A stretch of DNA of 64,000 nucleotides from Alphaproteobacteria bacterium (GCA_045602545.1 JAZSBR010000022.1:17696-81695), one strand, 5' to 3'. Shown: positions 4,637-27,635, numbered from the stretch's first letter. Notes: generated by a model from the letters alone, not told the origin. Numbers and translations are program-made.

Positions 4637-4801
4637 CTTGGATAAATACTATCTCCGGTAATGTTTTTTTGCAAGAATTAATTAGGAAATAACACACGAT
4701 TACTGCGAAAATCATCCAAGATATCATATCATACATCTGAATTTATGAATAATTATAATTTTCCCTCCAACGGTAAAAATGTTTGAATTTTGCCGGCCAT
4801 G

Positions 4802-5260
4802 TTATTTAATTTTATGATTTAAGGCGCTCTTTGGTAAATATTTATTGCAACCGCCAGTTTTAAGCATATACTGATTAACATCAATCACACCGGCAGATTT
4901 TATATCATCTAAATAGACTTTGCCTAAAATACGACCGAAAGAATCACGTTTTCCCCATTCAACTCTTATGTATCTATGGTCTTTAAGTAATTTTTTTAGT
5001 ATTTTCCGTGACTGTTTACCTTTTTCAAGCACTTCATCATAAGATAATCCATAGTATTTTTGTTGAAACTTTGCTCTTGCATTTTTCTTGGTTTCATAAC
5101 AATCAACATCAAGCAAGCGGATCTTTGTATTTTCATTATTAACCAGAGCCGTTAGTGTATCCCCATCATTTATTTTGATTATAGTTGCCACAAACTCATG
5201 CGCATAAACTATCTGCACATAAAATAAAGCGAAAAATGTAGTTGTTATAAACTTAAACAA
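4802..5260 (-). CDS. Thermonuclease (SNase family) with a probable signal peptide
   Basis: DGDT, IRLLDVDCYE and DSFGRILG motifs. The start was moved to the TTG at 5260, which precedes a hydrophobic signal (LFKFITTTFFALFYVQIVYA). The ORF-track extension to 5416 runs through a structured RNA. Confidence 0.8.
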   Translation of the reverse strand: MFKFITTTFFALFYVQIVYAHEFVATIIKINDGDTLTALVNNENTKIRLLDVDCYETKKNARAKFQQKYYGLSYDEVLEKGKQSRKILKKLLKDHRYIRVEWGKRDSFGRILGKVYLDDIKSAGVIDVNQYMLKTGGCNKYLPKSALNHKIK

Positions 5261-5261
5261 T

Positions 5262-5489
5262 GACAAACACCAATCAGCCCAAGTAAAACGCACTAGGCGG
5301 TGGATGTCGTTAACTGCAATCAACGCGAGATGCAGCTCACATATTCGTGCAAGCCTTATTTTTGTGAGCATCCACCATATCGGTGTCTGCCCTATGACGT
5401 AATATCCTATTGACATTAAACAATAGTTATTACCGCCCGCGTTGATTAGGTTTAACGATTACCTGTTGAAGTTCGGGCATTCCCCAACA
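5262..5489 (-). ncRNA. Unassigned highly structured leader RNA/ncRNA upstream of the thermonuclease
   Basis: Several helices whose G-U wobbles work only on the minus strand: 5482-5489/5464-5471, 5436-5447/5318-5329 and 5379-5391/5262-5274. Also 5452-5458/5307-5313, 5369-5376/5299-5306 and 5363-5369/5335-5341. The 5' end matches a predicted promoter. Confidence 0.65.
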
Positions 5490-5494
5490 AGTAC

Positions 5495-5523
5495 ACTATA
5501 AGCATATAATCTTAACAAATCAA
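5495..5523 (-). promoter_or_regulatory. Sigma70-type promoter for the structured RNA/thermonuclease
   Basis: Minus strand TTGATT-17 nt-TATAGT; predicted TSS ~5489. Confidence 0.6.
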
Positions 5524-5551
5524 TAAAAAAGATGTTTTACGTAAAATAGAG

Positions 5552-5583
5552 CTTAATTTATACCCTCAGAGATACAAATTAAA
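5552..5583 (-). repeat. 32-bp quasi-palindromic site, copy A (inverted relative to B and C)
   Basis: Reverse complement TTTAATTTGTA-TCTCTGAGGG-TATAAATTAAG; 3 mismatches to the consensus TTTAATTTGTA-TCTCTAAGGG-TACAAATTAAA. Confidence 0.75.
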
Positions 5584-5637
5584 TATGTAAACTTTAATTT
5601 AAGCCTTTACTGTTAATCTAACTTTAAGAGGTATATT

Positions 5638-6996: not shown

Positions 6997-8829
6997 ATGA
7001 ACACAAATTTAGTATTAAAATCTGAAGTTTTGGCAGATGCAAATTTTTCAGAAGAAAAAATCATAGGCAACCAACATGATTTTGAATTGCCGGGCAATAT
7101 AAATATTACTTCGGTGATTGATATTATTAAAAACAACAACTTATCTGAAGATAAATTAAAAGATTTATTGAAAAATCAGGCTAATGATAACCTCTTTCCT
7201 GTATATACAAAGAGCGAAGATCAGCAAAATTTATCTATTATTGAAATTGAGCAGAAAATTCAGGCTGAAATAAAAAATTTACAAACCGCCCCTTTATCCA
7301 AAGACGCTTATAAGAACAGAATTATGTCAGCTCAGAACAAAGCAGCATATCTCTTAATTGCGGAATGTGCATTAGCTGAAGAATTGCGCGCGATTCCAAA
7401 GAAGCAAGGAAAACACAATAATCCTGAATATAAAACAAAATTGCAATATATAAAGGATACGTATGGCTTAACGCGCAAGCCTGCACTGGCTATACAAAAA
7501 TTACAATGGGAAAATGTTATTGCTGCTATCACATGGGCATATAAAAATGAGGAAATTCCCACACGTTCTTTAGCTCTCTCAAGTAATAAAAAGATAAAAA
7601 ACGAAAAAGAGAAAAATAAAAATCTTGCCATTGACGCAATAAAATTATCTTTGGATCCTAAGTATGAAAATGAATATAAGACACTTAATCTGTCAGAACC
7701 ATTGTACGCTACTTCATTATTTGCTTGCATTGGCTCCGGAACTTCAAGACTTAAAGAATTAAATATACATTGTGCTGTAGCTAATGAATATTTATCGGAA
7801 AGAGCTGAAATTCATAAAAAATTAGATCCTGATTGTTTAATGATACAAGGTGACATAAAAAATAAAAAGATATTAAAACAGATTGTAGCGGCAAATAAGC
7901 AAAAGGGCTGTAAATTGCTTTTGGCCTCTCCTCCTTGTCAGGTTGCATCTCAATTAAATACTGCTAAAGATAAAGAAGAAAAAATAGAGTCTACCTTATT
8001 TTATGATACAATCAAGTTCATTAAATCCACACATAACGACTTTATTGTCATTGAAAATGTGCCGCAATGGTTAAATTCTTGCCCTAAAGCTGCTAAAAAA
8101 ATTTTATGGAGTAAAGACAGAAAAACATATATCACAATCGGAGAATATATGAAACATCAGCTTGAAATGTTGGGATACAACGTGAATATTGAAATTGTAA
8201 ATGCAGCTGATTATTGGACCGGAGAAGAAAGAAAACGCTGTATAATTCTTGCATGCAAAAGAAAATACGGTGTTTGGAAATTTCCGAAAAAAGCTTTACG
8301 CAAACTTTCGTTATGGCAAGTAATTGGTGATTTACCGAGTATTGAACCGGGGATGTCTGTATCATCTTATAAATGGCATTACGCTCTTCCTTTGGAGCCA
8401 TGTAAAATAAGATTTTTAGCTCATACGCCGACTGCCTGTTCTGCATTTGATAACGCCGGTGAATATCAACCGGTTAATACAGATGGAACACCAAGCAAAG
8501 CACAATTTGAAGCCGCTTTCACAAGATTAGACTGGAATAAGCCTTGTAAAACAATTACAACAAGCAGCAATTATATCGGTGGAACTTATACTTTGCATCC
8601 GGGATATGCATTAACCGATGGTACATATTCTGATTGCCGTGTTTTATCTATATTAGAATTATTAAGAATTATAGGTTTACCTGAAGATTTTCTCGAACCC
8701 TTAGACCTTCCGATGGATAATAATAACATGTTAACCCCAGATGATGATAGCTTTATCAGAGAAGTTCTTGGTGAACACGTTTGTCCAAAAATGTATAATG
8801 CCTTAATGACTACCCTACCATTAAAATAA
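6997..8829 (+). CDS. DNA (cytosine-5)-methyltransferase with a ~230-aa N-terminal extension
   Basis: Motif I SLFACIG, motif IV SPPCQ, motif VI ENV, motif VIII ERKR, motif IX RVLSILE and motif X GEHV. Confidence 0.9.
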   Translation: MNTNLVLKSEVLADANFSEEKIIGNQHDFELPGNINITSVIDIIKNNNLSEDKLKDLLKNQANDNLFPVYTKSEDQQNLSIIEIEQKIQAEIKNLQTAPLSKDAYKNRIMSAQNKAAYLLIAECALAEELRAIPKKQGKHNNPEYKTKLQYIKDTYGLTRKPALAIQKLQWENVIAAITWAYKNEEIPTRSLALSSNKKIKNEKEKNKNLAIDAIKLSLDPKYENEYKTLNLSEPLYATSLFACIGSGTSRLKELNIHCAVANEYLSERAEIHKKLDPDCLMIQGDIKNKKILKQIVAANKQKGCKLLLASPPCQVASQLNTAKDKEEKIESTLFYDTIKFIKSTHNDFIVIENVPQWLNSCPKAAKKILWSKDRKTYITIGEYMKHQLEMLGYNVNIEIVNAADYWTGEERKRCIILACKRKYGVWKFPKKALRKLSLWQVIGDLPSIEPGMSVSSYKWHYALPLEPCKIRFLAHTPTACSAFDNAGEYQPVNTDGTPSKAQFEAAFTRLDWNKPCKTITTSSNYIGGTYTLHPGYALTDGTYSDCRVLSILELLRIIGLPEDFLEPLDLPMDNNNMLTPDDDSFIREVLGEHVCPKMYNALMTTLPLK

Positions 8830-13367: not shown

Positions 13368-13396
13368 TTGACAACCGATTTTAAATAATTTATATA
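13368..13396 (+). promoter_or_regulatory. Probable promoter for riboswitch copy 1
   Basis: TTGACA-17 nt-TATATA directly upstream of the aptamer; the -10 is imperfect. Confidence 0.45.
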
Positions 13397-13400
13397 TGTA

Positions 13401-13493
13401 ATCAACCTATAAGGAGTTGTGCGAGGGACAAGCCCTATGACCACACAGCAACCGACAAAATGCACGGTGCTAAAGCTTGGATGATAGGTGGAT
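13401..13493 (+). promoter_or_regulatory. SAM-I (S-box)-type riboswitch aptamer, P4-less variant, copy 1
   Basis: P1 ACCTAT/ATAGGT; J1/2 AGGAG; P2 with kink-turn GA/GA; P2b GGG/CCC with loop ACAAG able to pseudoknot with CTTG; P3 AGCAACCG/CGGTGCT. Confidence 0.88.
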
Positions 13494-13500
13494 TTTTGAA

Positions 13501-13529
13501 GCCTATCGTTGTCGATGGGTTATTTTTTT
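13501..13529 (+). terminator. Expression-platform terminator of riboswitch copy 1
   Basis: GCCTATCG-ttgt-CGATGGGT followed by TATTTTTTT. Its 5' arm CCTATC can instead pair with GATAGG of P1 as an antiterminator. Confidence 0.85.
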
Positions 13530-13585
13530 ACTCTCGTTCTCTCCTTTGGGTTATTGTATTAACTTTTTTCATTAGGAGAAATTCT

Positions 13586-13993
13586 ATGGTAACAAATAAA
13601 AGATGGGCTTTCAAAAAAAATAAATCAGGTGTAGCAAGATGTTGCCGCGCTAAAGGAGTTAATGTTAATAATGATATTTGTCTCGCATCTATAAAACAAA
13701 CTCTTTACAAATTACAATATGTATATTGGGCAGATATGGATGACAAAACATTTTTAAATAGAGATTGGACATTTATTTTTCATGATCAATACAAAAAACT
13801 TTTTCATATATTCTCTATTCCTAAAGGACAATTGACGCCAGATTTAAGGAAAGCTAACAGAAAGCTTAATTTAGTCGACTGGAATATAAAAACAGCTTTC
13901 TATAAAGATGTAGATACTGGCTTTGATTTCAGTAATTTTTTTGTTAAAACAATTAGGTATGATGACCAAGATATTCTAAAATATGATAATTAG
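13586..13993 (+). CDS. Hypothetical protein (135 aa) downstream of riboswitch copy 1
   Basis: The ATG at 13586 has RBS AGGAG. The ORF-track start at 13460 lies inside the riboswitch. Confidence 0.7.
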   Translation: MVTNKRWAFKKNKSGVARCCRAKGVNVNNDICLASIKQTLYKLQYVYWADMDDKTFLNRDWTFIFHDQYKKLFHIFSIPKGQLTPDLRKANRKLNLVDWNIKTAFYKDVDTGFDFSNFFVKTIRYDDQDILKYDN

Positions 13994-14173
13994 CAAAACT
14001 TATATACTCGTATAAATGTATAAAAAATAATTGTCATTGACAGACATATTAATTGTCATTTTGGTATAATATAATGTCATAAAATATCAGGGAATGTTGC
14101 AAAAACAAAATGTTAGCACTTTTTTTGATATTTTAATATAACATAAAATAACTTTTTAAGAAAGGAATCGGAA

Positions 14174-14302
14174 ATGTGGTATGTAGTTGTAGAAGGAAAT
14201 AAACTTCCAACCCCTTATTTAACAATGGATGATGCAGTAAAAGCCATGAACGCTTTGAGATCCGTTTATCGCAATTGTTGCATGGATATTGTTTATGAAT
14301 AA
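14174..14302 (+). CDS. Small protein (42 aa, MWYVVVEGNKLPTPY...CCMDIVYE), below the ORF-track cutoff
   Basis: RBS AAGGA before the ATG; followed by the hairpin TCGGTT/AACCGA. Confidence 0.55.
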   Translation: MWYVVVEGNKLPTPYLTMDDAVKAMNALRSVYRNCCMDIVYE

Positions 14303-14331
14303 TATCGGTTAAATAAACCGAAAATATGGAA

Positions 14332-14414
14332 ACCTATAAAGAGTGTGCGAGAGACAAGCTCTATGACCACACAGCAACCGGCAAAAGCACGGTGCTAAAG
14401 CTTGAATGATAGGT
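14332..14414 (+). promoter_or_regulatory. SAM-I (S-box)-type riboswitch aptamer, P4-less variant, copy 2
   Basis: Same architecture as copy 1. P2b is GAG/CTC instead of GGG/CCC (a compensatory change); P2a is GTGTG/CACAC. Confidence 0.88.
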
Positions 14415-14423
14415 AACTTTAGA

Positions 14424-14453
14424 AGCCTATCGCTGTCGATGGGTTTATTTTTT
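14424..14453 (+). terminator. Expression-platform terminator of riboswitch copy 2
   Basis: AGCCTATCG-ctgt-CGATGGGTT followed by TATTTTTT. Confidence 0.85.
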
Positions 14454-14495
14454 GCCCTCTTTATAGGTTAATTTTATCAAAAACGGAGAGCAAAT

Positions 14496-15050
14496 ATGAC
14501 TTTAGAACAATATAATCAATGTTTACATGCGATAGATAAACAAATTGAAGAATTGCAACAGTCGCGTGAAGTTTTGATTACGCAAAATAAAGAAAAAATC
14601 GAAAAGCAAATCATTAAACGGCAGCAAGATGACCGCAAATGGTTTGTAAGCAATTTCGATGTGTTTTGGAACAATAGGCATAAATTTAATAAGAATACAC
14701 CAAATGCCGATATAATTATTGATTTTTTCAATATCTATACAAGAGGAAATAAGGCAGGTAGTAAGTCGGTTTGGCATATATCAATCAGCGACTTAATCAC
14801 CCTATGGGAGTTAGGTTATAAATATCAAGGCTATCCTATTGTTGAATATATCGGCCATGCTTTCGCCCATGAATTAACGTATATCAAGGACGGAAAATTG
14901 GTTACCGTTACCAATTTTAGAGAAGAATCACTAGGTTTTTCGCCGGTTTTATATGCAATCTTGGAATATTTAAGCACGCACAAAATCATTTCAAGTGGTT
15001 TTGAAGAATACAAAACCCTTAAAGGAATGAGAGATATTTTAGCAAACTAA
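14496..15050 (+). CDS. Hypothetical protein, paralogue 1 of a tandem triplet
   Basis: RBS GGAG; N-terminal coiled coil; motif IIIDF..YT...ISDLITLWELGYKYQGYPIV. Confidence 0.75.
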   Translation: MTLEQYNQCLHAIDKQIEELQQSREVLITQNKEKIEKQIIKRQQDDRKWFVSNFDVFWNNRHKFNKNTPNADIIIDFFNIYTRGNKAGSKSVWHISISDLITLWELGYKYQGYPIVEYIGHAFAHELTYIKDGKLVTVTNFREESLGFSPVLYAILEYLSTHKIISSGFEEYKTLKGMRDILAN

Positions 15051-15062
15051 AGGGAAAATGTC

Positions 15063-15545
15063 ATGTCTGAACAAAAAATTTATAATTTACCGGAAGAAAA
15101 TATAAAAGCTTTAGATACACTTTTTTCAAACATCAGCCTCATTGAGCAAAACAGAAATATAATTTATGAAACCGATAAATATTACAATATTTGTATTTCC
15201 GGTGTTGGCGTTTGTTTGGCTCACATGAAAACTGTGCCGTTGTTTTTAGGCGATTTATTGCAACTTTGGAAACATTCTGCATGGAAGCAAGATGACAATT
15301 ATTGCTACTTCGTTATGGGTTCACCGAGTTCAAACAGCAATATTTGCCATATATGGAACAGAAAATACGGATTTATTCAAAAATCCATCAAAGATATCGG
15401 AGAATTAGCTTTTCCGGCATTTTCATTAATAAATAACGGCACAATCAGTAATAAAATCTGCGTACAAAAATCAACTGCAGCCACTAAAACAAACTCACAT
15501 TTAAGTATTTTCAACTTAATTAATGAACTAAAGGAGCAAAAGTAA
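15063..15545 (+). CDS. Hypothetical protein, more divergent paralogue 2
   Basis: Motif LFLGDLLQLW, then GSPSS. Confidence 0.7.
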   Translation: MSEQKIYNLPEENIKALDTLFSNISLIEQNRNIIYETDKYYNICISGVGVCLAHMKTVPLFLGDLLQLWKHSAWKQDDNYCYFVMGSPSSNSNICHIWNRKYGFIQKSIKDIGELAFPAFSLINNGTISNKICVQKSTAATKTNSHLSIFNLINELKEQK

Positions 15546-16129
15546 TGAATATCAATGATTACAGAAAGCAATATCGCGAATTTGAAGAAAGAGCAGCCAA
15601 AGCAAAACAAGATTTTGAAATGTTTAAAGTGGCTGAACATCGTGATTTTTATGAACTATATCGCAAAGAGCAAGAAGAACATTTATTATGGCTTGCAGAG
15701 CATATTGATTATTTCCAAAAGCATAAAGAGTACATAAAAAACAGCCCTGGTTTAAGTAAAATTGTGATAGATTTTTTGCCGCTTTATACCGGTGGTGGCT
15801 TAGTTTCCGGTGCCGGATTTTGTCTTTGCAGTAAATATAAAATATATTTAGGAGATCTACTTGATGTATGGGACGCCGGATTTTGTTATAACGGCCATCC
15901 GATTGTTTCTTGTAATATCGGAATACATTGGAACACCGATTATCAACTCAAATATATCAAAAATAAAAAAATTGAGGGAGTCAGAGTAAGTATAAAAGGT
16001 CAATTTAGACATTTGCCTGAAATAAACAAGGAAGTATTTGCTAAGGTTTGCCAAGCAAATATAGCTAAGCAATTTCCGGATATGTCAACATATAAAAATA
16101 TCGACTTATTGATAAAGGTTTGTAAATAA
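15545..16129 (+). CDS. Hypothetical protein, paralogue 3
   Basis: TAATG coupling; motif IVIDF..YT...[21 protein letters not shown]. Confidence 0.75.
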
Positions 16130-16130
16130 A

Positions 16131-17009
16131 ATGAATGACAATTACTACAATGTACTAAAGGTTAAACCGGATGCTTCACAAGCTCAAATTAAGAATGCCT
16201 ATTATAAATTGGCTAAAAAATATCATCCGGATATTAATCGAAAAACCGAAGAAAAATTTAAAGCAATCAATATTGCTTATGAAGTGTTGTCAGATAAGCA
16301 AAAACGTCAGGAATATGATAATAAGCTAAAAGAAGAGGAAACTAAAGAACATGATATTAAGGATGAGAATATAACAACAAAAAATGATATACAGCCATTT
16401 GATGACAGTAAATTATATGACTTTGATGACAGTCTTTTCGATGACGAATTTTCGGCTTTTGAAAGAGAATATGAGAGACACAGCAAGACCGCAGAATGTG
16501 ATTTTTCAAATTATCATTATGTAGATAACAGCTCGATATTTGAAATTTTACAAAAAGCTAATTATCGTAATTTTGATGCTTCATATAATTCTATTTGGGC
16601 AAAAAATATGTTTGCTATGCTTGGAGCCTCAATTATCTATCTAACAGCAACATTGGTTATTGGATATAGAAAAGTATTTCATTTCAAAACATCGGCAGAA
16701 AAAGAAAGATATCGTGTTTATAAATACACCTGGTTGAAATCTTTTCATAATATTATAAATAAAAATAATTTCTGGAAGGCATTGATTATAACTATATCCC
16801 TTCCGTTTGTTGCTACACTTAAAATATTTCGCAATATGTTATACTGCTTCATATTTATACCGATGGATTATGTCATTAACAAGATTTTACTCCCATGTGT
16901 GGAAGAAATAATAAAGCTTCTTTTACGTCAAATCAAACGCATTATTGTGCTATGTCTTAAATGGGGTATTCCACTTCTGATATTATACGCACTGCTAACT
17001 CAACAATAA
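16131..17009 (+). CDS. J-domain (DnaJ-like) protein with C-terminal membrane segments
   Basis: NYYNVLKV...[15 protein letters not shown]...[13 protein letters not shown], followed by hydrophobic C-terminal stretches. Confidence 0.85.
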
Positions 17010-17020
17010 GGAAAACAGAT

Positions 17021-17578
17021 ATGACTACAGCAAATAATAAATATGAAAGCTCACTATGGGATATGCTTGACTATATCTCGCAGGATTTTGTTTTTAACCT
17101 GTTTTATATGATGATACATAAGCGATTTATACGTTATTTTGTTATAGATTACCACCGCATATATGACCTGATTCGTACTATACAGCGTATTAATCAATCA
17201 TTATCACCGTGCAAATTAGAAGAAAAAATCAATATTTTGTTTGCCGGTATCGAAACCGAAGAAGAAGTTTTAGATATGTTTAAGCTGTTTAGATATAATG
17301 CTATTGTGAAAGACGATAAAATCGTTATAACAAACGATACTGAACTTGATGATAATTACAATCCGGTTTATCCTGAACAAAGGGAAGAATATATTTTGCC
17401 GAGTTATATTCTTAAAAACTTTTTATTATTTCGTTCAGCTGTTAGCGATTGTGTTATGGGTAAATTTCCTAACAATCTGGACTATTGGCTCTACGCCTGC
17501 CGTTATTTACTTATGGATGACAAAGATTTTCATGATTTTGGCTTAAAGAATGACTTATTTCCATATATAAGTCAATAA
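17021..17578 (+). CDS. Hypothetical protein
   Basis: ATG at 17021 with RBS AAGGA; last gene of the riboswitch-2 operon. Confidence 0.65.
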   Translation: MTTANNKYESSLWDMLDYISQDFVFNLFYMMIHKRFIRYFVIDYHRIYDLIRTIQRINQSLSPCKLEEKINILFAGIETEEEVLDMFKLFRYNAIVKDDKIVITNDTELDDNYNPVYPEQREEYILPSYILKNFLLFRSAVSDCVMGKFPNNLDYWLYACRYLLMDDKDFHDFGLKNDLFPYISQ

Positions 17579-17743
17579 TAGTTATACATGCGGTTGTTTT
17601 CTGTCTGTTTATTAGTAATCCCGTCTAAACGGAAGCAAAATGTTACCAATAAACTTCATTTTAGGGGCTCGCGAAGGTGAATTTCCACGACATACTATTT
17701 AATGTAAATAGTTAATAACACTAATTTTGAAAGGAATAAAACC

Positions 17744-18016
17744 ATGCAAAAACAATTTGAACAATACCTACAATCAAAGAATTATAGTGCAACAACAGCT
17801 ATTGATTATCCGGCACGTTTAGAAAGACTTTGCAGAAAAGAGAAGTTTAGCTATGAACATCTGGCACAACATTTAGCTGAGATTATGCCTCAATATGAAA
17901 GAACAGGTAAAAAGTCATCTTATGGCAAGAGAAGCCATTCATCTGTCATCAATGCTTTGAGAAGATTTGCTGAATTCTTATCAGATTGCAACATCAAATT
18001 TGAAGGTGCGAACTAA
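17744..18016 (+). CDS. Stand-alone integrase core-binding-like helical protein
   Basis: FEQYL...SATTAIDYPARL...INALRRFAEFL; RBS AAGGA. Confidence 0.65.
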   Translation: MQKQFEQYLQSKNYSATTAIDYPARLERLCRKEKFSYEHLAQHLAEIMPQYERTGKKSSYGKRSHSSVINALRRFAEFLSDCNIKFEGAN

Positions 18017-18336
18017 TGACTGATATTGCAACGTTAAATGATAATTTCCGTAAAACATTTACCGGTGGTCAGGTGCTCTTGACTGCCGGTATTGCTGCCA
18101 TGAGTTCAGAAGATAAAGCAAATATTATATCACTAGTTCAAAATTTTGATAATTTTAATGAAGATAATGACCCTTATAAAGAACATGATTTTGGAAATTT
18201 TGACTATAAAGGCAATAAAATCTTCTGGAAAATAGACTATTACGACCGGTTTAATACACATTTTGCTTCTGAAAATCCAGCTGATATAAGCAAAACATTG
18301 AGAATACTCACCATCCTGTTGGCAGAAGAATATTAA
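18016..18336 (+). CDS. DUF3768-family protein
   Basis: IATLNDNFR, DNDPYKEHDFG, FWKIDYYD and RILTILLAEEY. Confidence 0.85.
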   Translation: MTDIATLNDNFRKTFTGGQVLLTAGIAAMSSEDKANIISLVQNFDNFNEDNDPYKEHDFGNFDYKGNKIFWKIDYYDRFNTHFASENPADISKTLRILTILLAEEY

Positions 18337-18360: not shown

Positions 18361-18433
18361 TGACACCATAACAAGAGTTTCCAAATTTTATATATAAGTC
18401 TATATGAAACATGAATTCGTTGTTATGGTGTCA
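18361..18433. repeat. 73-bp element with perfect 14-bp terminal inverted repeats (MITE-like or bidirectional hairpin)
   Basis: TGACACCATAACAA (18361-18374) and TTGTTATGGTGTCA (18420-18433), with TTTT on both flanks. Confidence 0.6.
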
Positions 18434-19102
18434 TTTTATACAATTTATATAGTTATTTAAGAAATATTGCCAATTATCCAGATTTTGTTCCGCAAAAAAT
18501 TGTTGCAAAAATCTTACCATAAATTGATGCCGATTCTCCGCTTCTGTTTTACCTACTTCTGTTTGCATCGCTCCTTTTAACAGTAATAATTTCTCAAAAA
18601 AGTGATTAATCATATGCTTTTTATTGTTTTCCGGAGAAGGCAGTTCTTTTTCATTAAATAAAGGCTGATTGCGTGAGACACTGAAACTTAAGGCTCTACA
18701 TATACCAATAGCGCCCATAGCATCTAACTTATCAGCATCCGATAATAATTTCATTTCTAATGTCCTAAAATTGGGATTTGCACCACTTTTGGAAAAACTT
18801 ATAGCATCAATTGTTTCTAAAATTTCTTGAATGGTGTTTGTATCAAGATTTAGGTTATACAAAAACTTTTCAGCAACTTTACCATCTGTATTCATCTTAT
18901 GATCATCTACGTCATGCAATAATGCACTCATTTTGCAAATAAATTCATTTGCATTTTTTTCTTCATTTAGTAATTTATTGATATTTGCATAAACACGTTT
19001 TATATGCTCAAAATCGTGTCCGGAATTATCTCCGGAATGATATTCTTTGGCAAATTGATATGTTTTATTTAATATATCTTCCTGCATCATAATCCTTTCC
19101 AA
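18431..19102 (-). CDS. HD-domain phosphohydrolase (YedJ-like)
   Basis: GHDFEHIKRV, ALLHDVDD, DADKLDAMGAIG and HFFEKLL. Confidence 0.9.
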   Translation of the reverse strand: MERIMMQEDILNKTYQFAKEYHSGDNSGHDFEHIKRVYANINKLLNEEKNANEFICKMSALLHDVDDHKMNTDGKVAEKFLYNLNLDTNTIQEILETIDAISFSKSGANPNFRTLEMKLLSDADKLDAMGAIGICRALSFSVSRNQPLFNEKELPSPENNKKHMINHFFEKLLLLKGAMQTEVGKTEAENRHQFMVRFLQQFFAEQNLDNWQYFLNNYINCIK

Positions 19103-20289
19103 ATTTTACTTTTTCTTACTTGTTGAATAAATAAGTCGTTTTTATTAACAATATCACTTTTTGTAGCTGATAAAAAATCATAAATTATTTGTTTTTCTTC
19201 TTTTTCTGATAAAAAATTAACTTGTGTTTTTACAACCGAATTTCCTTGTTCTAAATTTGAGACGCACTTAAGCAACGCTGAAAATGTTAGATAAATGTAT
19301 GGAGACAACATTTCATTACATAATTGCGGATAAGCAAAATTTATAGCATTTCCCTTATTTAAAAAATTAACTTGCTGAACAGGATATATTTTGTTGTTAT
19401 TCTCAGGCATTTGATTTAAGCGGATTGAAGTAAAATTAAATTCATCTTCTGATGAGGTACAAGATGCAATATAACAACCTTGTTTTATGTCTGGCAAATC
19501 TGTATCACTTAAAGACTTATGTCCTGTTGCGCATATTAAAACATCAGAATTTTCAAGTATATTTGTTTTAGAAGAATATCGGAATCCTGATGTATCTATG
19601 AACTTTCTTACATTTTCATCATTATCAAAAATCAAAACATTCAATTTTAGCTTTTCCTTAAGATAAAAAGCACATCCTCGTCCAACCTCTCCAAACCCGA
19701 TAATTCCAATTCTTTTATTTTTCAGCATTATATGATTTTCGCTCAATAGTCGTTCTGTCGCCGAGGCTATTGAGCGGCCAATTAAGTAATCTTCAAAATC
19801 TTTGGCTCTACTCCTTGCTACAGAAAATATAGGTAAGTTATTTTCGGGATATTCTGATAATTTCTGTTCATACTTTTGTAATCCGTTTTCTGTATCTTCT
19901 ATAATTCCCAAAATATTAGAATATTGATTTAATTTCTTTAAAGATGGTGCAAAGTATCCTCCTGTATCAAAAATAATTAATTTTTCATCATTTTGTATTA
20001 ATGGTGATACTTTTTGACTGATAGTAGAATCAATGAAAAAATCTGTTCTTTTAAAATCAAGAATTTTAATACCACTACATGTTGCTTGTTTTTTAGTCTT
20101 TTCATCTACAGAATTTGGTTTTGCAATCAATCCAGCTACTCTACCTTTCTTAGAAAGAGTATTTAAGAAATCTATGGTATTATCAACCAAATGAGTTACC
20201 ACAATGAAACACTTTTTAGAATCTGAAAAATCAGATGTGATAGTGTCCATAAATTTCAATGCTTGTGTTTTTGGGTTGCAATTTTTCAT
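19087..20289 (-). CDS. Divergent adenosylhomocysteinase (AdoHcyase)-like NAD-binding protein
   Basis: DTGG, EDTENG (cf. EETTTG), K..ED..IG, Rossmann GFGEVGRG, ATG and G..IN. Confidence 0.7.
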   Translation of the reverse strand: MKNCNPKTQALKFMDTITSDFSDSKKCFIVVTHLVDNTIDFLNTLSKKGRVAGLIAKPNSVDEKTKKQATCSGIKILDFKRTDFFIDSTISQKVSPLIQNDEKLIIFDTGGYFAPSLKKLNQYSNILGIIEDTENGLQKYEQKLSEYPENNLPIFSVARSRAKDFEDYLIGRSIASATERLLSENHIMLKNKRIGIIGFGEVGRGCAFYLKEKLKLNVLIFDNDENVRKFIDTSGFRYSSKTNILENSDVLICATGHKSLSDTDLPDIKQGCYIASCTSSEDEFNFTSIRLNQMPENNNKIYPVQQVNFLNKGNAINFAYPQLCNEMLSPYIYLTFSALLKCVSNLEQGNSVVKTQVNFLSEKEEKQIIYDFLSATKSDIVNKNDLFIQQVRKSKIWKGL

Positions 20290-20301
20290 GATAAACTCGA
20301 A

Positions 20302-20913
20302 TCAATATTTCTTAATGTTTTTAAGTTGTAAAATAAAATTATCTAAACTTATATTTTGGGTATTATTGATTCTTGATATCATATTAGCCATTTTTTGAGG
20401 ATTAATATTTAAAGTATTAAAAAATACGACATTGTAATCGATTTTTTCTTGAAAAAATTCTTTATTTTTTTGATTAAATTTTTCATCTAAATAAAATGAT
20501 GGCATATCAAAATCACCTCTGTCATAACAACGATCTTTTCGCGTTTGAGTATCTATATCCAGAAAAATAATTATATCAGGGTTGATAACTTCTTTAAGTA
20601 AATCCTTGTTTTTTAATAAATTATGGCAATCATCATTATTTTTTGCATATTCAAACGCTAATAATGTTAAATATGATCTGTCCAATACCAAATTTACTGA
20701 TTTATCAAGAAACTCCTTCTGTCGCCTTTTTTCGATATTTAAAAGTAAAGGTAATGCGCTTTGCTTTGATTTTTGCAAATAATCTAATTCAAGTTGTTCT
20801 TCTTTTGTTATAAAATCCATATATTCCGGAACCATCAGAAATGAATGTTTTGACAACTCTTTTGCTAAAGTTGTCTTGCCGCTACATATTCCACCCTCTA
20901 ATGCAAGTATCAT
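20302..20913 (-). CDS. Deoxynucleoside/dNMP kinase-family P-loop protein
   Basis: LEGGICSGKTT, VPEY, LDRS and PDIIIFLD...R...RG. Confidence 0.8.
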   Translation of the reverse strand: MILALEGGICSGKTTLAKELSKHSFLMVPEYMDFITKEEQLELDYLQKSKQSALPLLLNIEKRRQKEFLDKSVNLVLDRSYLTLLAFEYAKNNDDCHNLLKNKDLLKEVINPDIIIFLDIDTQTRKDRCYDRGDFDMPSFYLDEKFNQKNKEFFQEKIDYNVVFFNTLNINPQKMANMISRINNTQNISLDNFILQLKNIKKY

Positions 20914-20918
20914 TAAAC

Positions 20919-21515
20919 TTACTCCAACATCTGTAATAAATTTAAAACATCATTTTCATTTCTAACACAAAAACTATTTCCTCCTATTTTTTTAAAAATT
21001 TCACAGTTGCTTTTCGAGTTATCTAGTAAAATTGATTTTTTGATGTCAGATTTTGTATCCTTTAACGCTTTTATGAAAAGAGATTCCTCTTCATCGCCTT
21101 TCAAAATACCCAAATCAGCAGAATTATAAATTCTATCAAAGTGTTGACCAAGCTTCAATTGCGGCTCAGTATATATTGTAAAACTGTCCATATTATCTGT
21201 AATTAAATAAACATTATTATTTTTTCGACACCTATCTATAGCTCTTAAAATATCAGCACTAACCGTCATTGTTTTACAATCGGCTACAAAGATTGAAAAA
21301 ACATCTTTAAAATCAACCTCTAAAGAAAGAGCAACAAATTTACAAATTTCTTCAGAAGTTAATTTACCCCGCATCCAGTTCTCTAGAGTTTCACCATTTC
21401 CACCGCGAAAAAGAAAATCCTCAATTTTTCGTTTCAATGTTTCAGGAGCTGTCCGCCAAAAAGTATCAAAACATATTGTTCCGTCAAAATCTATGAATAT
21501 ATTTTGTTTTTTCAT
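20919..21515 (-). CDS. HAD-superfamily phosphatase
   Basis: DFDGT, ITDN, K and LLDNS motifs. Confidence 0.85.
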   Translation of the reverse strand: MKKQNIFIDFDGTICFDTFWRTAPETLKRKIEDFLFRGGNGETLENWMRGKLTSEEICKFVALSLEVDFKDVFSIFVADCKTMTVSADILRAIDRCRKNNNVYLITDNMDSFTIYTEPQLKLGQHFDRIYNSADLGILKGDEEESLFIKALKDTKSDIKKSILLDNSKSNCEIFKKIGGNSFCVRNENDVLNLLQMLE

Positions 21516-21569
21516 CTTGTATCCTTTTTAGTTATATTATATTACTAATAATATAAAGAAAGGTTTAAG

Positions 21570-22265
21570 ATGCAAGCAATTTTTTTATCTCCGCATTATG
21601 ATGATATTGCGTTTTCTGTTAATTCATTTGTAGAAAAGGACGATATCATTATTGATGTATACACGGAAACAAAATACATTGAAAATAAAAACATATTTTT
21701 AAATATGTCCGTTTCAGAGTTAAGAAAACAGGAAGAAAGGATATATACAAATGGTAAAAATGTATCATTTATAAACTTGGATTTTTTAGATGAGTGCCCA
21801 AATATAACACCATTTTCGTTTTATCATAATATACAGCCGAGAACTATGATAGAAAATAAAATACTTGATTTATTAAAAACTTTATCTGATAAAGGATATT
21901 CAAAACTTTTCTCTCCTCTTGGCGTTGGTAAGCACTATCATCACATGGAAGTATTTGAAATCGTTCATAAAAACTACATTTACCTATCAAAAAAATTTGA
22001 GATATTCTTTTACGTTGATTTTCCATACATATCCTACAAAAATAACTTACGCCAAAGATTACGATACCTATCACGGTTTCTTAAGCAAAACTCTATTCAT
22101 CAAAAGAAATTGTTGTTAACTAGAGAGCAGATACAAAACAAACTAGTTTCATTATCTGCATACAAAAGCCAATTTATTGATACAAATCGACAAACCATAC
22201 TTCTTAAAATGAGAGATTTAAAAGGAAATTTTTCTGAAATCATTTTTTCTTCACATTTTGAATAA
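21570..22265 (+). CDS. PIG-L/LmbE-family N-deacetylase
   Basis: SPHYDD, R..EE, HYHH, DFPY and YKSQ. Confidence 0.8.
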   Translation: MQAIFLSPHYDDIAFSVNSFVEKDDIIIDVYTETKYIENKNIFLNMSVSELRKQEERIYTNGKNVSFINLDFLDECPNITPFSFYHNIQPRTMIENKILDLLKTLSDKGYSKLFSPLGVGKHYHHMEVFEIVHKNYIYLSKKFEIFFYVDFPYISYKNNLRQRLRYLSRFLKQNSIHQKKLLLTREQIQNKLVSLSAYKSQFIDTNRQTILLKMRDLKGNFSEIIFSSHFE

Positions 22266-23307
22266 GATTTAGAAATTCTTCACATACATTTCTCGTAAAT
22301 TTTTGACTACAGTTATACGCAAGATTTTGAAAATGCTTATAATTATTTTCGTTTTTACATATACTTATTGCCTTTATCCATAAGTTAACATCAAGATTAT
22401 CTAATAAAATACCAGCCCCATTTAATGCTTCAGATATTCCACCTATATTATGTGCAATCACAGGAATTCCACGTAGCGAAGCCTCAACAATTACCCGCCC
22501 GAAAGCTTCTTCTACCACAGATGGAACAACTAAAATCTTTGTCTGCTTCCAAATATTATCCATATCCATCTGTAGTGGATAGTATTTTATATTAGTAGAC
22601 ATATTATCATAAAATTCATCATTTTTGTACCATCCCTCTACTGCTAGAAACTGTTCTTCTGGCATATTTTTTGCGAGTTCTAAAACAAAAGTAGCACCTT
22701 TTTCTTTGACTGGATTAATAAATGTTATTTTATCTCCAGTATTTATCATTTTATTAATTTTACTAAATCCAGAATAAAAAACAAAATTTGGTATATTATA
22801 TAATGATAGAATTCTTTGTTGGATAAATTTTGATGTACTGAATAGTATATCTGGACGTCCTTTTGCTACAATAGTTCCCTCTATATTTGCAGAATGTAAC
22901 CATCCTATAGTAAGCTCAGTATATTTTTTCGCAACAGAAACAAGTTTATCAGCACCTTCCATTGATAGTATAATAGCTGTAATTTTATTATTAATTGTTT
23001 TCAATAAACTTTCTGCCTCATCTAATAAACTATTTTGAGGATATAAATAGCACGTAATCCCATTATATTGATATGAAATACATTTATTAGAGAAACTCAA
23101 ATTTTTGATATTATTTGCACACTTAATTGTCTGTCCATAAAAATTTTGCCTCTCTTTTGCCGGATAAGTTGGATTTTCTATGCTTCCAATAAAAATAACA
23201 TTGTGTCCATTTGCAGTCAATTGTTCCGCTAAAAAATTATGAGTAATTTCTGCACCACCCAAAAACAAAGGGGGAGTTGGACGTCGTGTAATAAAAATAA
23301 AAAACAT
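22240..23307 (-). CDS. GT4-family glycosyltransferase
   Basis: GGAE, KG and VPSVVEEAFGRVIVEA...GIPVI...GGISE. Confidence 0.9.
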   Translation of the reverse strand: MFFIFITRRPTPPLFLGGAEITHNFLAEQLTANGHNVIFIGSIENPTYPAKERQNFYGQTIKCANNIKNLSFSNKCISYQYNGITCYLYPQNSLLDEAESLLKTINNKITAIILSMEGADKLVSVAKKYTELTIGWLHSANIEGTIVAKGRPDILFSTSKFIQQRILSLYNIPNFVFYSGFSKINKMINTGDKITFINPVKEKGATFVLELAKNMPEEQFLAVEGWYKNDEFYDNMSTNIKYYPLQMDMDNIWKQTKILVVPSVVEEAFGRVIVEASLRGIPVIAHNIGGISEALNGAGILLDNLDVNLWIKAISICKNENNYKHFQNLAYNCSQKFTRNVCEEFLNLIQNVKKK

Positions 23308-27632: not shown

Positions 27633-27635
27633 ATC

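Follow-up and report, generated by a model that had tools for sequence, protein, structure and literature searches.

Two riboswitches of a compact SAM-I subtype, borne by a mobile element and repressed by SAM (OFF switches), probably limit a set of accessory genes to conditions of low SAM in the 64,000-nt stretch of DNA from an Alphaproteobacteria bacterium analysed here (the window). The sensor would be a SAM-I core, recognized from its sequence and by comparison as P1, P2 with a K-turn, P3 and a P2-loop pseudoknot, and its ligand-binding form, to judge from relatives, a three-way junction in which P1 uses the strand that Rfam labels the 5' arm of P4. Without SAM, an antiterminator would arise from a downstream strand (B') folding back onto the 3' strand of P1, while SAM would lock P1 and free B' to form a terminator with strand A' beside a U-tract, ending transcription. 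In escaped transcripts, a further segment (X) would pair with the aptamer 5' strand when SAM is absent, leaving the Shine-Dalgarno (SD) region free; with SAM the 5' strand would be held, X would pair with the SD region and translation would be blocked. The gene orf135 and the operon p184-p160-p194/J-domain/p185 would thus be expressed only when SAM is low. Most likely, this would serve to tie the functions of the element to methyl-donor supply, that is, to DNA methylation capacity.

Aptamers and leader architecture

A search of the whole window with cmscan at gathering thresholds (44.4 bits for RF00162) gave SAM-I matches on the plus strand as the sole two matches. This agrees with the initial annotation, which had described two SAM-I-type aptamers ~930 bp apart and suggested scanning them against the SAM-I model: both score above the cut-off, the copies are spaced by 924-926 nt, and they share 84-94% identity across three blocks. 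The compensatory pair change that it had noted between the copies is the middle pair of P2b, which is G-C in copy 1 and A-U in copy 2, and which across 51 related leaders is G-C in 26, A-U in 25 and never unpaired. All conserved core positions, terminators, X segments and SD sites are intact in both copies. On these sequence grounds both RNAs are genuine SAM-I-class aptamers and would be expected to sense SAM; SAM binding, termination and SD occlusion at the window switches are what we infer from the following features.

13368-13396, plus strand: promoter-like site of unit 1, with a perfect -35, a 17-nt spacer and an A/T-rich -10, recognized by eye
13404-13521, plus strand: riboswitch 1, full Rfam match (RF00162, 53.9 bits, E 1.3e-09)
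13404-13490, plus strand: riboswitch 1, putative P4-less aptamer with P1, P2 with K-turn region, P3 and pseudoknot
13480-13529, plus strand: expression platform 1 (terminator scan and fold), with strands B 13480-13489, B' 13500-13508, A' 13513-13521 and U-tract 13522-13529
13500-13521, plus strand: terminator-like hairpin 1 of 9 pairs, then the U-tract
13534-13579, plus strand: predicted translational layer 1, with X 13534-13553 and the SD region 13574-13579
14041-14070, plus strand: promoter-like site with an extended -10 (promoter scan, 10/12 matches with TG)
14174-14302, plus strand: orf42, a conserved 42-aa ORF upstream of riboswitch 2
14331-14445, plus strand: riboswitch 2, full Rfam match (RF00162, 57.3 bits, E 1.3e-10)
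14331-14414, plus strand: riboswitch 2, putative P4-less aptamer, with P1 formed by 14331-14337 and 14408-14414 (fold)
14405-14490, plus strand: expression platform 2 (terminator scan and fold), with strands B 14405-14414, B' 14424-14432 and A' 14437-14445, then U-tract 14446-14453, X (anti-SD) 14453-14470 and SD 14485-14490
14423-14446, plus strand: terminator-like hairpin 2 of 10 pairs, then the U-tract

The promoter-like site of unit 1 was missed by a consensus scan because the final base of its -10 is not T; the unit-1 transcript may be expected to start at about the first base of aptamer 1. Since orf42, with a promoter-like site of its own, separates the two units, aptamer 2 is probably transcript-internal. 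Homologues of orf42 adjoin orf135 or HNH-like genes in loci L116 and L155. In riboswitch 1, the two strands of P1 (13404-13410 and 13483-13489) are also paired in the minimum-free-energy fold of the leader, the pseudoknot joins the P2 loop with the junction, and 13396-13494 alone, cut before B', scores 48.6 bits against RF00162 (cut-off 44.4); the P4-less form of riboswitch 2 is presumed by analogy with riboswitch 1 and the relatives.

The intrinsic terminator previously proposed to follow each aptamer is present as a predicted hairpin and U-tract, and a terminator scan over 6.1 kb found 5 such sites, compared with 2.7 +/- 1.5 in shuffles. In platform 1, B is the P1 3' strand, and B' pairs either with B (the antiterminator, which is Rfam's P4) or with A' (the terminator). 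X1 is complementary both to the aptamer 5' strand (P1 5', J1/2 and P2 5') and to the SD region, with RNAduplex energies of -16.4 kcal/mol (z -3.4 against shuffles) and -9.9 kcal/mol (z -4.0), respectively. The corresponding values in copy 2 are -20.6 kcal/mol (z -5.7) and -9.0 kcal/mol (z -1.6), the pairing with the SD being weaker there than in copy 1.

Downstream genes and their island

Downstream of the switches the initial annotation had placed a 135-aa orphan and a five-gene operon coding for three paralogues, for a J-domain protein of the membrane and for a further orphan, with no Met, Cys or SAM genes among them, in a defence island that also encodes a C5 methyltransferase and an AdoHcyase-like enzyme. 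The ORFs are as described.

13586-13993, plus strand: orf135, first gated gene, a basic 135-aa orphan of pI 9.5 (ORF list)
14496-15050, plus strand: p184, paralogue of 184 aa
15063-15545, plus strand: p160, paralogue of 160 aa
15545-16129, plus strand: p194, paralogue of 194 aa
16131-17009, plus strand: membrane J-domain protein of 292 aa (PF00226, E 7.8e-24)
17021-17578, plus strand: p185, last gene of the operon, an acidic 185-aa orphan of pI 4.8, with an alternative start at 16961
6997-8829: C5 methyltransferase (PF00145, E 9.4e-28)
19087-20289, minus strand: AdoHcyase-like protein (PF00670, E 1.3e-08)

The three paralogues share 21-24% identity and common motifs, form one BLAST cluster and belong to an unannotated domain family with 15 close homologues, none of them named; a profile search extended the family to 184 cluster representatives at E<=1e-3, some members being fusions with ankyrin repeats or with an HTH at the N terminus. 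An AF2 model (pLDDT 86.8) gave no structural match. In the 292-aa protein, an N-terminal J domain bearing the HPD motif is followed by an acidic linker and then by hydrophobic segments in the C-terminal part (hydropathy windows starting at residues 159-161, 239 and 268-273), a part that has 6 homologues only. For orf135 there are 5 homologues, all unnamed, Atlas yields unnamed clusters only, and a 158-nt metatranscriptome contig, weak evidence, is identical to 13613-13770 within the gene. Neither orf135 nor p185 matches any family in Pfam, PHROGs, PADLOC or NCBIfam, and the same four collections gave no Met/Cys/SAM family match for any cargo protein.

By look, the setting is indeed that of a mobile defence island: GC is ~30% compared with ~39% in the flanks, and the genes include two large serine recombinases, an Mrr-type nuclease, an SNase, a Cas4-like DUF2779 protein, the PADLOC candidate PDC-S41 (E 2.8e-272) and the C5 methyltransferase. 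The AdoHcyase-like enzyme holds up as a PF00670 relative but only as a distant one, scoring 64.5 bits against NF004005, for which the cut-off is 275. The window's two copies are the only SAM-I matches in this small (1.6-Mb), 100%-complete genome of a gut bacterium; SAM-I is present in 4 of 100 further members of the same family and in 0 of 7 from the same genus. This rarity, together with the low-GC, recombinase-bearing island, suggests that the switches are accessory and were brought by a mobile element.

Distribution of the subtype and what the switches may serve

A survey of the genes behind homologous aptamers had been proposed earlier. The subtype proves widespread: a strict pattern for it gave matches on 28 IMG/VR contigs of viruses and in at least 120 genome loci, and two GenBank phage records carry it as well. 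Behind 148 distinct leaders, the commonest switch-led gene encodes an unannotated ~100-aa phage protein family (61 first ORFs in one supercluster); smaller clusters are MetK (8), FGase (8), RNAP alpha-CTD-like proteins (4), IS1595 transposase (3) and the p160 family (3), and for 14 leaders no first ORF was called. Similar cassettes, in which the switch is followed by homologues of p184, p194 or p185, are found again in related genomes: relatives of p184/p160/p194 follow the same riboswitch in L134, L136, L034, L156 and L157, and a p185 homologue, 67% identical, lies within the L156 cassette. The cargo is not bound to the switch: an orf135 homologue in a related MAG (L116) has no switch upstream, and in G067 an aptamer lying before the remnant of a truncated p184 has degenerated to 39.8 bits.

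We found no earlier report in the literature of phage- or element-borne SAM-I switches. Like the phage riboswitches on record, namely c-di-GMP-I in C. difficile prophages and glutamine in cyanophages (McCown et al. 2017, PMC5473149), ours are metabolite-sensing RNAs on phages or prophages and not in host metabolic operons; unlike these, they are of the SAM-I class, show a conserved association with particular protein families that lack annotation, possess a dual expression platform that is likewise conserved, and are far commoner than that 2017 review suggested for phages. SAM-IV has been counted in 16 Mycolicibacterium prophages, targets and mechanism not being given in that part of the source (PMC8190616).

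The presence of the same switch type on gut phages suggests that mobile elements monitor the cell's supply of methyl donor. Because the subtype elsewhere serves phage moron-like genes, transposase and metK, methyl-donor supply may well be what is read in the window too, and this context suggests coupling to methylation capacity as the likeliest purpose. Methylation-coupled control of a mobile element is familiar from Dam, which controls the IS10 transposase. As there, element expression would rise when DNA methylation lags, and the SAM-I leader stands before IS1595-family transposases in 3 leaders; unlike there, the signal would be the methyl donor, acting through a riboswitch, and not the methylation state of a promoter.

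The boldest surviving reading, which was the main idea of the initial annotation and which we regard as unlikely, is that the switches detect a phage SAM lyase and derepress backup defence or abortive-infection effectors. They would then resemble guard-type immunity, in which PARIS senses Ocr and PrrC senses Stp, in firing once an invader disables SAM-dependent defences, although here a metabolite pool would be read by an RNA, where those systems have a protein that reads a phage protein. The OFF logic supported below would turn the genes on when SAM drops, and the cassette shares its island with PDC-S41 and the Mrr-type, SNase and Cas4-like nucleases. Related cassettes also lie in variable neighbourhoods, for example with a putative reverse-transcriptase-like protein in L136 (translation by eye), and in phage L003 the switch and a small gene form a stand-alone unit between opposite-strand genes, a layout typical of prophage morons. 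That phage SAM lyases disarm SAM-dependent restriction and BREX is documented (PMC7877911; 10.1101/2023.02.27.530186). However, the cargo had zero matches among 5027 PADLOC models, and no hint of a toxin or nuclease emerged from the folds and families searched. Switches of the metK type answer ordinary methionine limitation, so that a lethal effector would fire in starvation; transposase, alpha-CTD-like proteins and MetK are under this switch too, and it is missing before the L116 homologue of orf135. Coupling of element expression to methylation capacity, the broader alternative in the initial annotation, fits no less well than defence does, given that the subtype also precedes transposase, RNAP alpha-CTD-like proteins and, most often, a small phage protein.

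A further reading, which we consider quite improbable, is that the cargo orphans, and with them the ~100-aa phage family, take a hitherto unrecognized part in SAM homeostasis, for instance by stimulating MetK, economizing on SAM or salvaging by-products. The switches would then be exerting their usual metabolic feedback, and phages might carry them as auxiliary metabolic genes, securing SAM for their own DNA methyltransferases. The same aptamer subtype does control MetK and FGase-family hydrolases (8 leaders each); viral contig L031 has the switch followed by an acidic 732-aa protein and then a MetK-like ORF, a DNA methyltransferase lies near the switch both in phage L003 and in the window, and the distant AdoHcyase-like enzyme is in the island as well. 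Yet no cargo protein has an enzyme or transporter signature, and the membrane J-domain protein, the ankyrin- and HTH-fused relatives, the transposases and the alpha-CTD-like proteins look non-metabolic. The families are, moreover, rare and patchy, with 15 (paralogues), 6 (J-domain C-terminal part) and 5 (orf135) close homologues.

Junction form and polarity

Rfam draws P1 between the 5' strand (A) and the last strand before the U-tract (A'), in which case bound SAM would keep the terminator from forming, giving an ON switch, whereas in relatives P1 joins the 5' strand to the strand that Rfam labels the 5' arm of P4 (B). A P4-deleted alignment of 84-90 nt is the model's best for 13 hits (L004, L136 twice, L116, L064, L066, L123, L113, L014, G005, G027 and G067 twice, one of the G067 matches being below the cut-off). 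One metK leader (L123) has neither B', A' nor any terminator, and its P1 is A:B, of 8 bp. Unrelated hairpins account for 14 of 100 detected terminators, which makes the four-way form impossible in those 14 leaders; our own script detected no terminator in 37 of 137 leaders, some of these possibly being misses. By comparison with these relatives, the window aptamers would be P4-less three-way junctions, and the apparent P4 helix is probably the antiterminator, with the terminator reusing the 3' arm of P4.

Two further metK leaders (L066 and L049) have a B/B'/A'/U-tract/X platform identical in layout to that of the window. Feedback repression of metK by SAM is established, and the shared platform hence argues for a SAM-repressed polarity. 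The claim that bound ligand means OFF thus probably stands, but the geometry of competition between terminator and P1, as drawn in the initial annotation, does not. Of 51 leaders, 45 have an X complementary to the 5' aptamer strand (z<-2) and 40 have one complementary to the SD region, and pairing with both gives OFF logic under either P1. Across the same 51 leaders, pairing reaches 94.3% for B:B', where 6 pairs have changed on both sides, and 96.1% for B':A', where 4 have, the observed covariation score being reached by 0 of 500 shuffles; since both covary, the antiterminator and terminator helices are both real. For P1, covariation fails to discriminate between the two pairings where both are present (A:B 78.7% paired, A:A' 76.2%, 51 leaders). 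By duplex energy, A:B is favoured in 54 of 86 leaders and A:A' in 17, with a tie in the other 15.

It seems very unlikely that a four-way form, with A:A' and a true P4 (B:B'), binds SAM and promotes read-through by sequestering the terminator 5' arm, the translational layer trimming the output to a possible band-pass response. Such a form is Rfam's best alignment for both window copies (53.9 and 57.3 bits), in copy 1 by ~5 bits over the P4-less one, B:B' covaries as a real helix, and A:A' pairing nearly equals A:B. However, metK leaders have the platform in common, and an ON switch at metK would mean runaway positive feedback; some relatives lack A' or have unrelated terminators, and since the X/SD logic is OFF, an ON terminator would leave no expression in either state. 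That the aptamers are decaying, horizontally transferred relics regulating nothing in the present host is hardly credible, for although one relative has a sub-threshold aptamer before a truncated gene and SAM-I is otherwise lacking in the host lineage, the core positions, terminators, X and SD are intact in both copies and their P2b difference is compensatory.

The SAM-repressed switches proposed here share with canonical SAM-I (S-box) RNAs, such as B. subtilis yitJ/metI and T. tengcongensis metF, the core sequence, P1, P2 with K-turn, P3, the P2-loop-to-junction pseudoknot, OFF logic via competing antiterminator and terminator, and, in relatives, the metK target. They differ in that the subtype is probably a three-way junction without P4, that its terminator 3' arm copies the P1 3' strand, so that a pseudo four-way fold can be drawn, that it has a built-in second, translational layer, and that the window and phage targets are not sulfur, methionine or SAM genes. 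As in SAM-IV and SAM-I/IV, which are in Rfam clan CL00012 with SAM-I (architecture in part as outlined in PMC6890682), a SAM-I-like core has a junction without internal P4 and a hairpin 3' of P1; the subtype, by contrast, keeps the K-turn region, and its 3' hairpin is a terminator and not a structural P4. SAM-I was the best clan member here by cmscan, one lower-scoring clan match being omitted. It tells against the proposed mechanism in this host that the platform is Bacillota-like in appearance, whereas the host has an AcrB-type pump and the closest named carriers are labelled Alphaproteobacteria.

SAM-I aptamers and the genes they precede

A scan of the 64-kb window against all Rfam families gave two matches to RF00162 (SAM-I), both above its curated gathering score of 44.4 bits, and no match to any other family at curated thresholds:

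13404-13521, + strand: SAM-I aptamer, copy 1, 53.9 bits
14331-14445, + strand: SAM-I aptamer, copy 2, 57.3 bits

The copies are spaced 924-926 nt apart and are 84-94% identical, and the cmscan alignments place the consensus letters of the SAM-I core (J1/2, the K-turn region in P2, P3 and the P2 loop-junction pseudoknot) in both. The initial annotation had read from the sequence two SAM-I aptamers about 930 bp apart, each followed by an intrinsic terminator, with a compensatory base-pair change between them. The Rfam scores bear out the aptamers, a hairpin and U-tract are present directly 3' of both, and the compensatory change, which lies in P2b, is genuine, the pair being G-C in 26, A-U in 25 and broken in none of 51 related leaders. 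Across these leaders the conserved core columns are invariant, and P2 and P3 show compensatory changes at a pairing of 100%. From the core identity with metK-associated members of the subtype we infer that the window aptamers would bind SAM selectively. A tRNA scan found no tRNA genes in the window, and the SAM-II model (RF00521) had no match in the window's own genome, a blank that carries no information, since the control likewise gave none in 14 genomes.

The genes around the two switches (the cargo, and its neighbour downstream) are the following:

13586-13993: 135-aa ORF (orf135) behind copy 1, with a good Shine-Dalgarno (SD) site
14174-14302: conserved 42-aa ORF (orf42) a short way 5' of copy 2, preceded by a promoter-like site of its own
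14496-17578: five tightly packed ORFs behind copy 2, namely paralogues of 184, 160 and 194 aa (p184, p160, p194), a 292-aa protein and an acidic 185-aa orphan (p185)
18016-18336, + strand: DUF3768 protein (E 9.8e-34), directly downstream of the gated operon

SAM-I switches usually precede genes for sulfur, methionine or SAM metabolism or transport, whereas the cargo had no match to Met/Cys/SAM families in Pfam, PHROGs, PADLOC or NCBIfam, which agrees with the absence of such genes claimed earlier; control of sulfur and methionine genes is the usual context of RF00162 and not a defining feature of the RNA family. Near the cargo the four libraries matched a J domain, DUF3768 and, weakly, an integrase-N-like segment in a 90-aa ORF, and nothing else. 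PADLOC-DB 2.0 matched none of nine window proteins (13586-18336) at E<=0.01, nor the one ~100-aa phage protein searched (the family is described below). A word-index search returned no named homologues of the cargo, only metagenomic ones (15 for p160, six for the C-terminus of the J protein, five for orf135), and in the ESM Atlas orf135 matched unnamed clusters, while p194 gave no usable result.

The 292-aa protein carries an N-terminal J domain (PF00226, residues 4-63, E 7.8e-24) with the HPD motif, followed by C-terminal hydrophobic segments. By domain and motif it is of the J-domain (Hsp40) type, with stimulation of DnaK as a predicted activity. Membrane J proteins of the DjlA type have an N-terminal membrane anchor and a C-terminal J domain; in the window protein this order is reversed, the hydrophobic segments lying after residue 159. 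Identity with DjlA was rejected on this order and on the NF006948 score (22.5 bits vs a cut-off of 162).

The p160-type domain defines a genuine family, though a sparse one (184 cluster representatives at E<=1e-3 out of 1.84 billion), and in some members it is joined to ankyrin repeats or an N-terminal HTH. The confident AF2 model of p160 (mcdbf351d3bf6; pLDDT 86.8) is an alpha/beta structure of 160 residues, for which Foldseek returned nothing from the PDB or BFVD libraries at E<=0.001. A wide VIA search found none of 48,161 chains at Z>=2, a blank so unusually complete that it is perhaps a tool artefact rather than a sign of a new fold. A DNA-mimic reading of the cargo was discarded because the proteins are not generally acidic, with pI values between 4.8 and 9.5 and, for the ~100-aa family, a median of 6.2. 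Common to the cargo genes are the regulator and a location on mobile DNA.

A probable P4-less aptamer and a proposed two-layer platform

Each leader includes four short strands with two alternative pairing schemes: A, the 5' strand of P1; B, just 3' of the pseudoknot; B', about 10-40 nt further on; and A', just 5' of the U-tract. In the Rfam alignment for the window, A:A' forms P1 and B:B' forms P4. The scanned terminator is B':A', and it is therefore incompatible with the Rfam four-way fold. The minimum free energy fold of both leaders combines A:B, P2 and P3 with the B':A' terminator downstream.

Several observations favour A:B as the working P1. Copy 1 ending before B' scores 48.6 bits with P4 deleted, still above the RF00162 threshold, and a P4-less alignment of 84-90 nt is the model's own best for 13 related hits. 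Among related leaders (L numbers denote such leaders or their loci), the metK leader L123 has only an anti-SD segment and the SD site 3' of B, and the metK leader L064 and 13 other leaders have unrelated terminators without A'. P4-less aptamers of about 85 nt score 51-61 bits, above the Rfam threshold, in L123, L064, L113 and L014, and also in L136, L116 and L004.

In the 51-leader alignment, B:B' is paired in 94.3% (six pairs changed on both sides) and B':A' in 96.1% (four pairs changed on both sides), and the observed covariation score was reached by none of 500 shuffles. The terminator (hairpin and U-tract) is mutually exclusive with the helix that uses the 3' strand of P1, and both helices covary. 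Compensatory changes in both competing helices identify B' as a true toggle. Covariation does not separate the two P1 candidates where both are possible (A:B 78.7% paired vs A:A' 76.2%), and A:B was taken as the working P1 because of the relatives without A'. We consider it probable that the binding form is P4-less. Canonical SAM-I has an internal P4 between P3 and the 3' strand of P1; in the window a four-way fold can be drawn, but its B:B' helix, although it covaries, competes with the terminator, and relatives of the switch, metK leaders included, are without any P4. The RNA belongs to a known class; its architecture and regulon are new variants. No description of a P4-less SAM-I was found in the full texts searched, which cover part of the literature. 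The form of about 85 nt is a minimal SAM-I aptamer that occurs in nature and would be of use to structural and synthetic work, and the platform illustrates how a terminator can re-use strands of the aptamer. As a separate observation, the P4-less aptamer appears to control metK in some gut bacteria, and in L123, which has no terminator, this control would be purely translational.

With respect to polarity, SAM synthetase genes are feedback-repressed by SAM, and the platforms of the metK leaders L066 and L049 are identical in layout to that of the window. We propose that SAM would lock A:B and free B', upon which B':A' would form beside the U-tract and transcription would stop; in the absence of SAM, B would be captured by B' and the polymerase would read through. 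A second layer may be provided by X, an anti-SD segment 3' of the U-tract, which is complementary to the aptamer 5' strand in 45 of the 51 leaders and to the SD region in 40 (z<-2 vs shuffles in each case). In the window, the z values for the 5' strand and the SD region are -3.4 and -4.0 in copy 1 and -5.7 and -1.6 in copy 2, where the second is weaker. If the SAM-bound RNA keeps its 5' strand, X is left to cover the ribosome site, so that this layer points to OFF whichever P1 holds. We hold the OFF logic with considerable confidence. Read-through transcripts might, in addition, still adopt a pseudo four-way fold that binds SAM at a late stage, with silencing then exerted on translation.

Phages, gut genomes and the genes behind the subtype

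A BLAST search of GenBank phages matched the aptamers in a Ruminococcus phage (L003) and in an unverified faecal phage record, both confirmed by Rfam, and the whole platform is common to the window and both phage leaders. In L003 the switch and a 98-aa gene form a lone + strand unit amid minus-strand genes, with a DNA methyltransferase 2 kb from the switch. A strict 27-position sequence pattern retrieved 28 IMG/VR contigs and at least 120 loci in species-representative genomes; among the genome loci listed, most are gut or rumen Bacillota MAGs.

The survey of genes behind homologous aptamers that had been suggested at the outset rests on the first ORF (SD-like word, at least 40 aa), called in 134 of the 148 distinct leaders listed, some short calls being surely spurious, and grouped by BLAST single-linkage clustering among those leaders.

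Table. First ORFs behind the related leaders (class; number of leaders among those listed; loci)
~100-aa family supercluster, including fusions to a second domain and MORN-like proteins; 61; L003 4175-4471, L005 4369-4644, L027 6348-6650 and about 40 more
MetK; 8
FGase-family hydrolases (N-formylglutamate amidohydrolase family, PF05013), Pfam-confirmed; 8; L048, L077, L087, L091, L097, L122, L129, L135
RNAP alpha-CTD-like proteins (PF03118, E 1.9e-13), Pfam-confirmed; 4; L014 120-632 (-), L068, L108, L126
IS1595 transposases, Pfam-confirmed; 3; L029 357-1418 (-), L093, L099
p160 family; 3; window copy 2, L134, L136
Remaining first ORFs; pairs and singletons

The ~100-aa family is thus the commonest gene behind this subtype, in phages and gut MAGs, among the leaders listed; the second domain of the fusions is also of about 100 aa. 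Neither this family nor the p160 family had a Pfam match, and PHROGs gave nothing below E 0.007 for eight riboswitch-linked proteins, five of them from the ~100-aa family. The confident AF2 model of the ~100-aa family (pLDDT 89.5) had no fold match in the PDB, the best VIA Z of 3.2 being at noise level, and kinship with the p160 family was rejected (profile-profile probability 0.1%, no detectable relation). The common regulator of the ~100-aa phage family, the p160 domain, orf135 and the membrane J-domain protein points to a shared theme.

Several of the rarer classes are observations in their own right. IS1595-family genes behind the same leader suggest that transposase expression may be tied to the SAM level, and one of the four alpha-CTD-like modules (L014) lies on a viral contig. 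The PF05013 family is a recurrent target in host genomes, and its association with this subtype is not placeable in known SAM or methionine pathways. In the viral contig L031 two look-alike terminators stand in tandem behind the riboswitch; next come a 732-aa protein of extreme acidity and an ORF whose beginning resembles SAM synthetase (about 3057-5255 and 5277-5633, in riboswitch orientation).

Riboswitches are feedback sensors of host metabolism. They were described as rare in phage genomes in a 2017 census, which, in the part available, names only c-di-GMP-I and glutamine examples (PMC5473149), and a 2021 survey, likewise available in part, counts SAM-IV in 16 Mycolicibacterium prophages, with no comment in that part (PMC8190616). 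No description of phage- or element-borne SAM-I switches was found in the full texts searched, which cover part of the literature; supplementary census tables could bear on this. In gut and rumen bacteria the subtype described here is carried by phages and islands, with a conserved two-layer OFF platform before unannotated families.

The island, its host and a proposed purpose of the switches

GC content is about 30% over bases 1 to ~33,000 and about 39% beyond, rising at ~33-34 kb. Other features of the island are:

50-802, + strand: Mrr-type nuclease, flanking PDC-S41
2576-4636, - strand: full-length PDC-S41 PADLOC candidate (Schlafen-like helicase), E 2.8e-272
4802-5416, - strand: SNase-domain protein, flanking PDC-S41
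low-GC part: 610-aa C5 methyltransferase
low-GC part: Cas4-like DUF2779 protein
18431-23307, mostly - strand: HD phosphohydrolase, AdoHcyase-fold NAD enzyme, dNK/dTMP-kinase-like protein, HAD phosphatase and GT1 glycosyltransferase
26196-29228, + strand: two adjacent large serine recombinases of 478 and 530 aa

The recombinase pair probably marks the integration module of the element. Of the two methylation-related enzymes that the initial annotation had placed in the island, the C5 methyltransferase stands, whereas the AdoHcyase-like enzyme is only distant (64.5 bits vs a cut-off of 275); the cluster in which it lies looks like a putative nucleoside or nucleotide modification pathway. The remainder of the contig carries ordinary genes, an AcrB-type pump included, which places the island in physical continuity with a chromosome of the Gram-negative type. 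The plasmid library gave only a chance-level 84-nt match, to a Mycoplasmopsis record.

The two window copies are the only SAM-I matches in the genome (1.6 Mb, 100% complete). SAM-I occurs in four of 100 other genomes sampled from the same bacterial family and in none of seven of the same genus. The switches are accessory, having been gained by horizontal transfer.

We favour the view that the elements read SAM as methylation capacity; at low SAM they would turn on accessory functions, for example to protect undermethylated DNA, to move or to manipulate the host. An alternative, which sharpens this view along the lines of the initial annotation and which we regard as unlikely, is that a compact SAM-I switch on mobile elements and prophages of gut bacteria acts as an RNA guard of the methyl-donor pool and releases effectors when an invading phage destroys SAM to disarm restriction or BREX, or when methylation capacity collapses; the ~100-aa phage protein, the p160-type domain and the membrane J-domain partner would then exclude the invader or shield the element's own undermethylated DNA. 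However, switches of the metK type answer ordinary starvation too, the cargo bears no toxin or defence signature, and an orf135 homologue occurs without a switch. If true, it would be the first immune or counter-immune module triggered by a metabolite riboswitch, and should the cargo prove to serve defence or counter-defence, metabolite-sensing RNA would be tied to the conflict of phage and host. The finding offers a testable entry to the question of how mobile elements gauge the methylation capacity of their hosts, on which the outcome of restriction, BREX and anti-restriction depends.

An index of sequencing runs lists 20 runs from 13 studies that contain part of the window, labelled (by label only) as ruminant gut or rumen. 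From one metatranscriptome (X20), nine contigs were aligned, among them a 158-nt contig identical to 13613-13770 and a 151-nt contig with seven differences over 15331-15481; transcript ends are not visible in these contigs and DNA carry-over is possible. Short X20 pieces over the aptamers were rejected as window transcripts, as they continue into unlike sequence and come from other organisms. Nothing aligned from three raw-read RNA runs (X21-X23), a blank that carries no weight as to expression.

Part of the window's DUF3768 gene has a counterpart of 74% DNA identity in the faecal phage record MT838658.1. In the four relatives within the sampled family and in MAGs labelled Alphaproteobacteria, shuffled homologues of p184, p160, p194, p185 and orf42 stand behind the same switch. 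One of these cassettes (L155/L157, on contig C40 of the family genome G067) has a decayed second aptamer of 39.8 bits, below the cut-off, before a 47-aa p184 remnant, which shows that the cassettes turn over.
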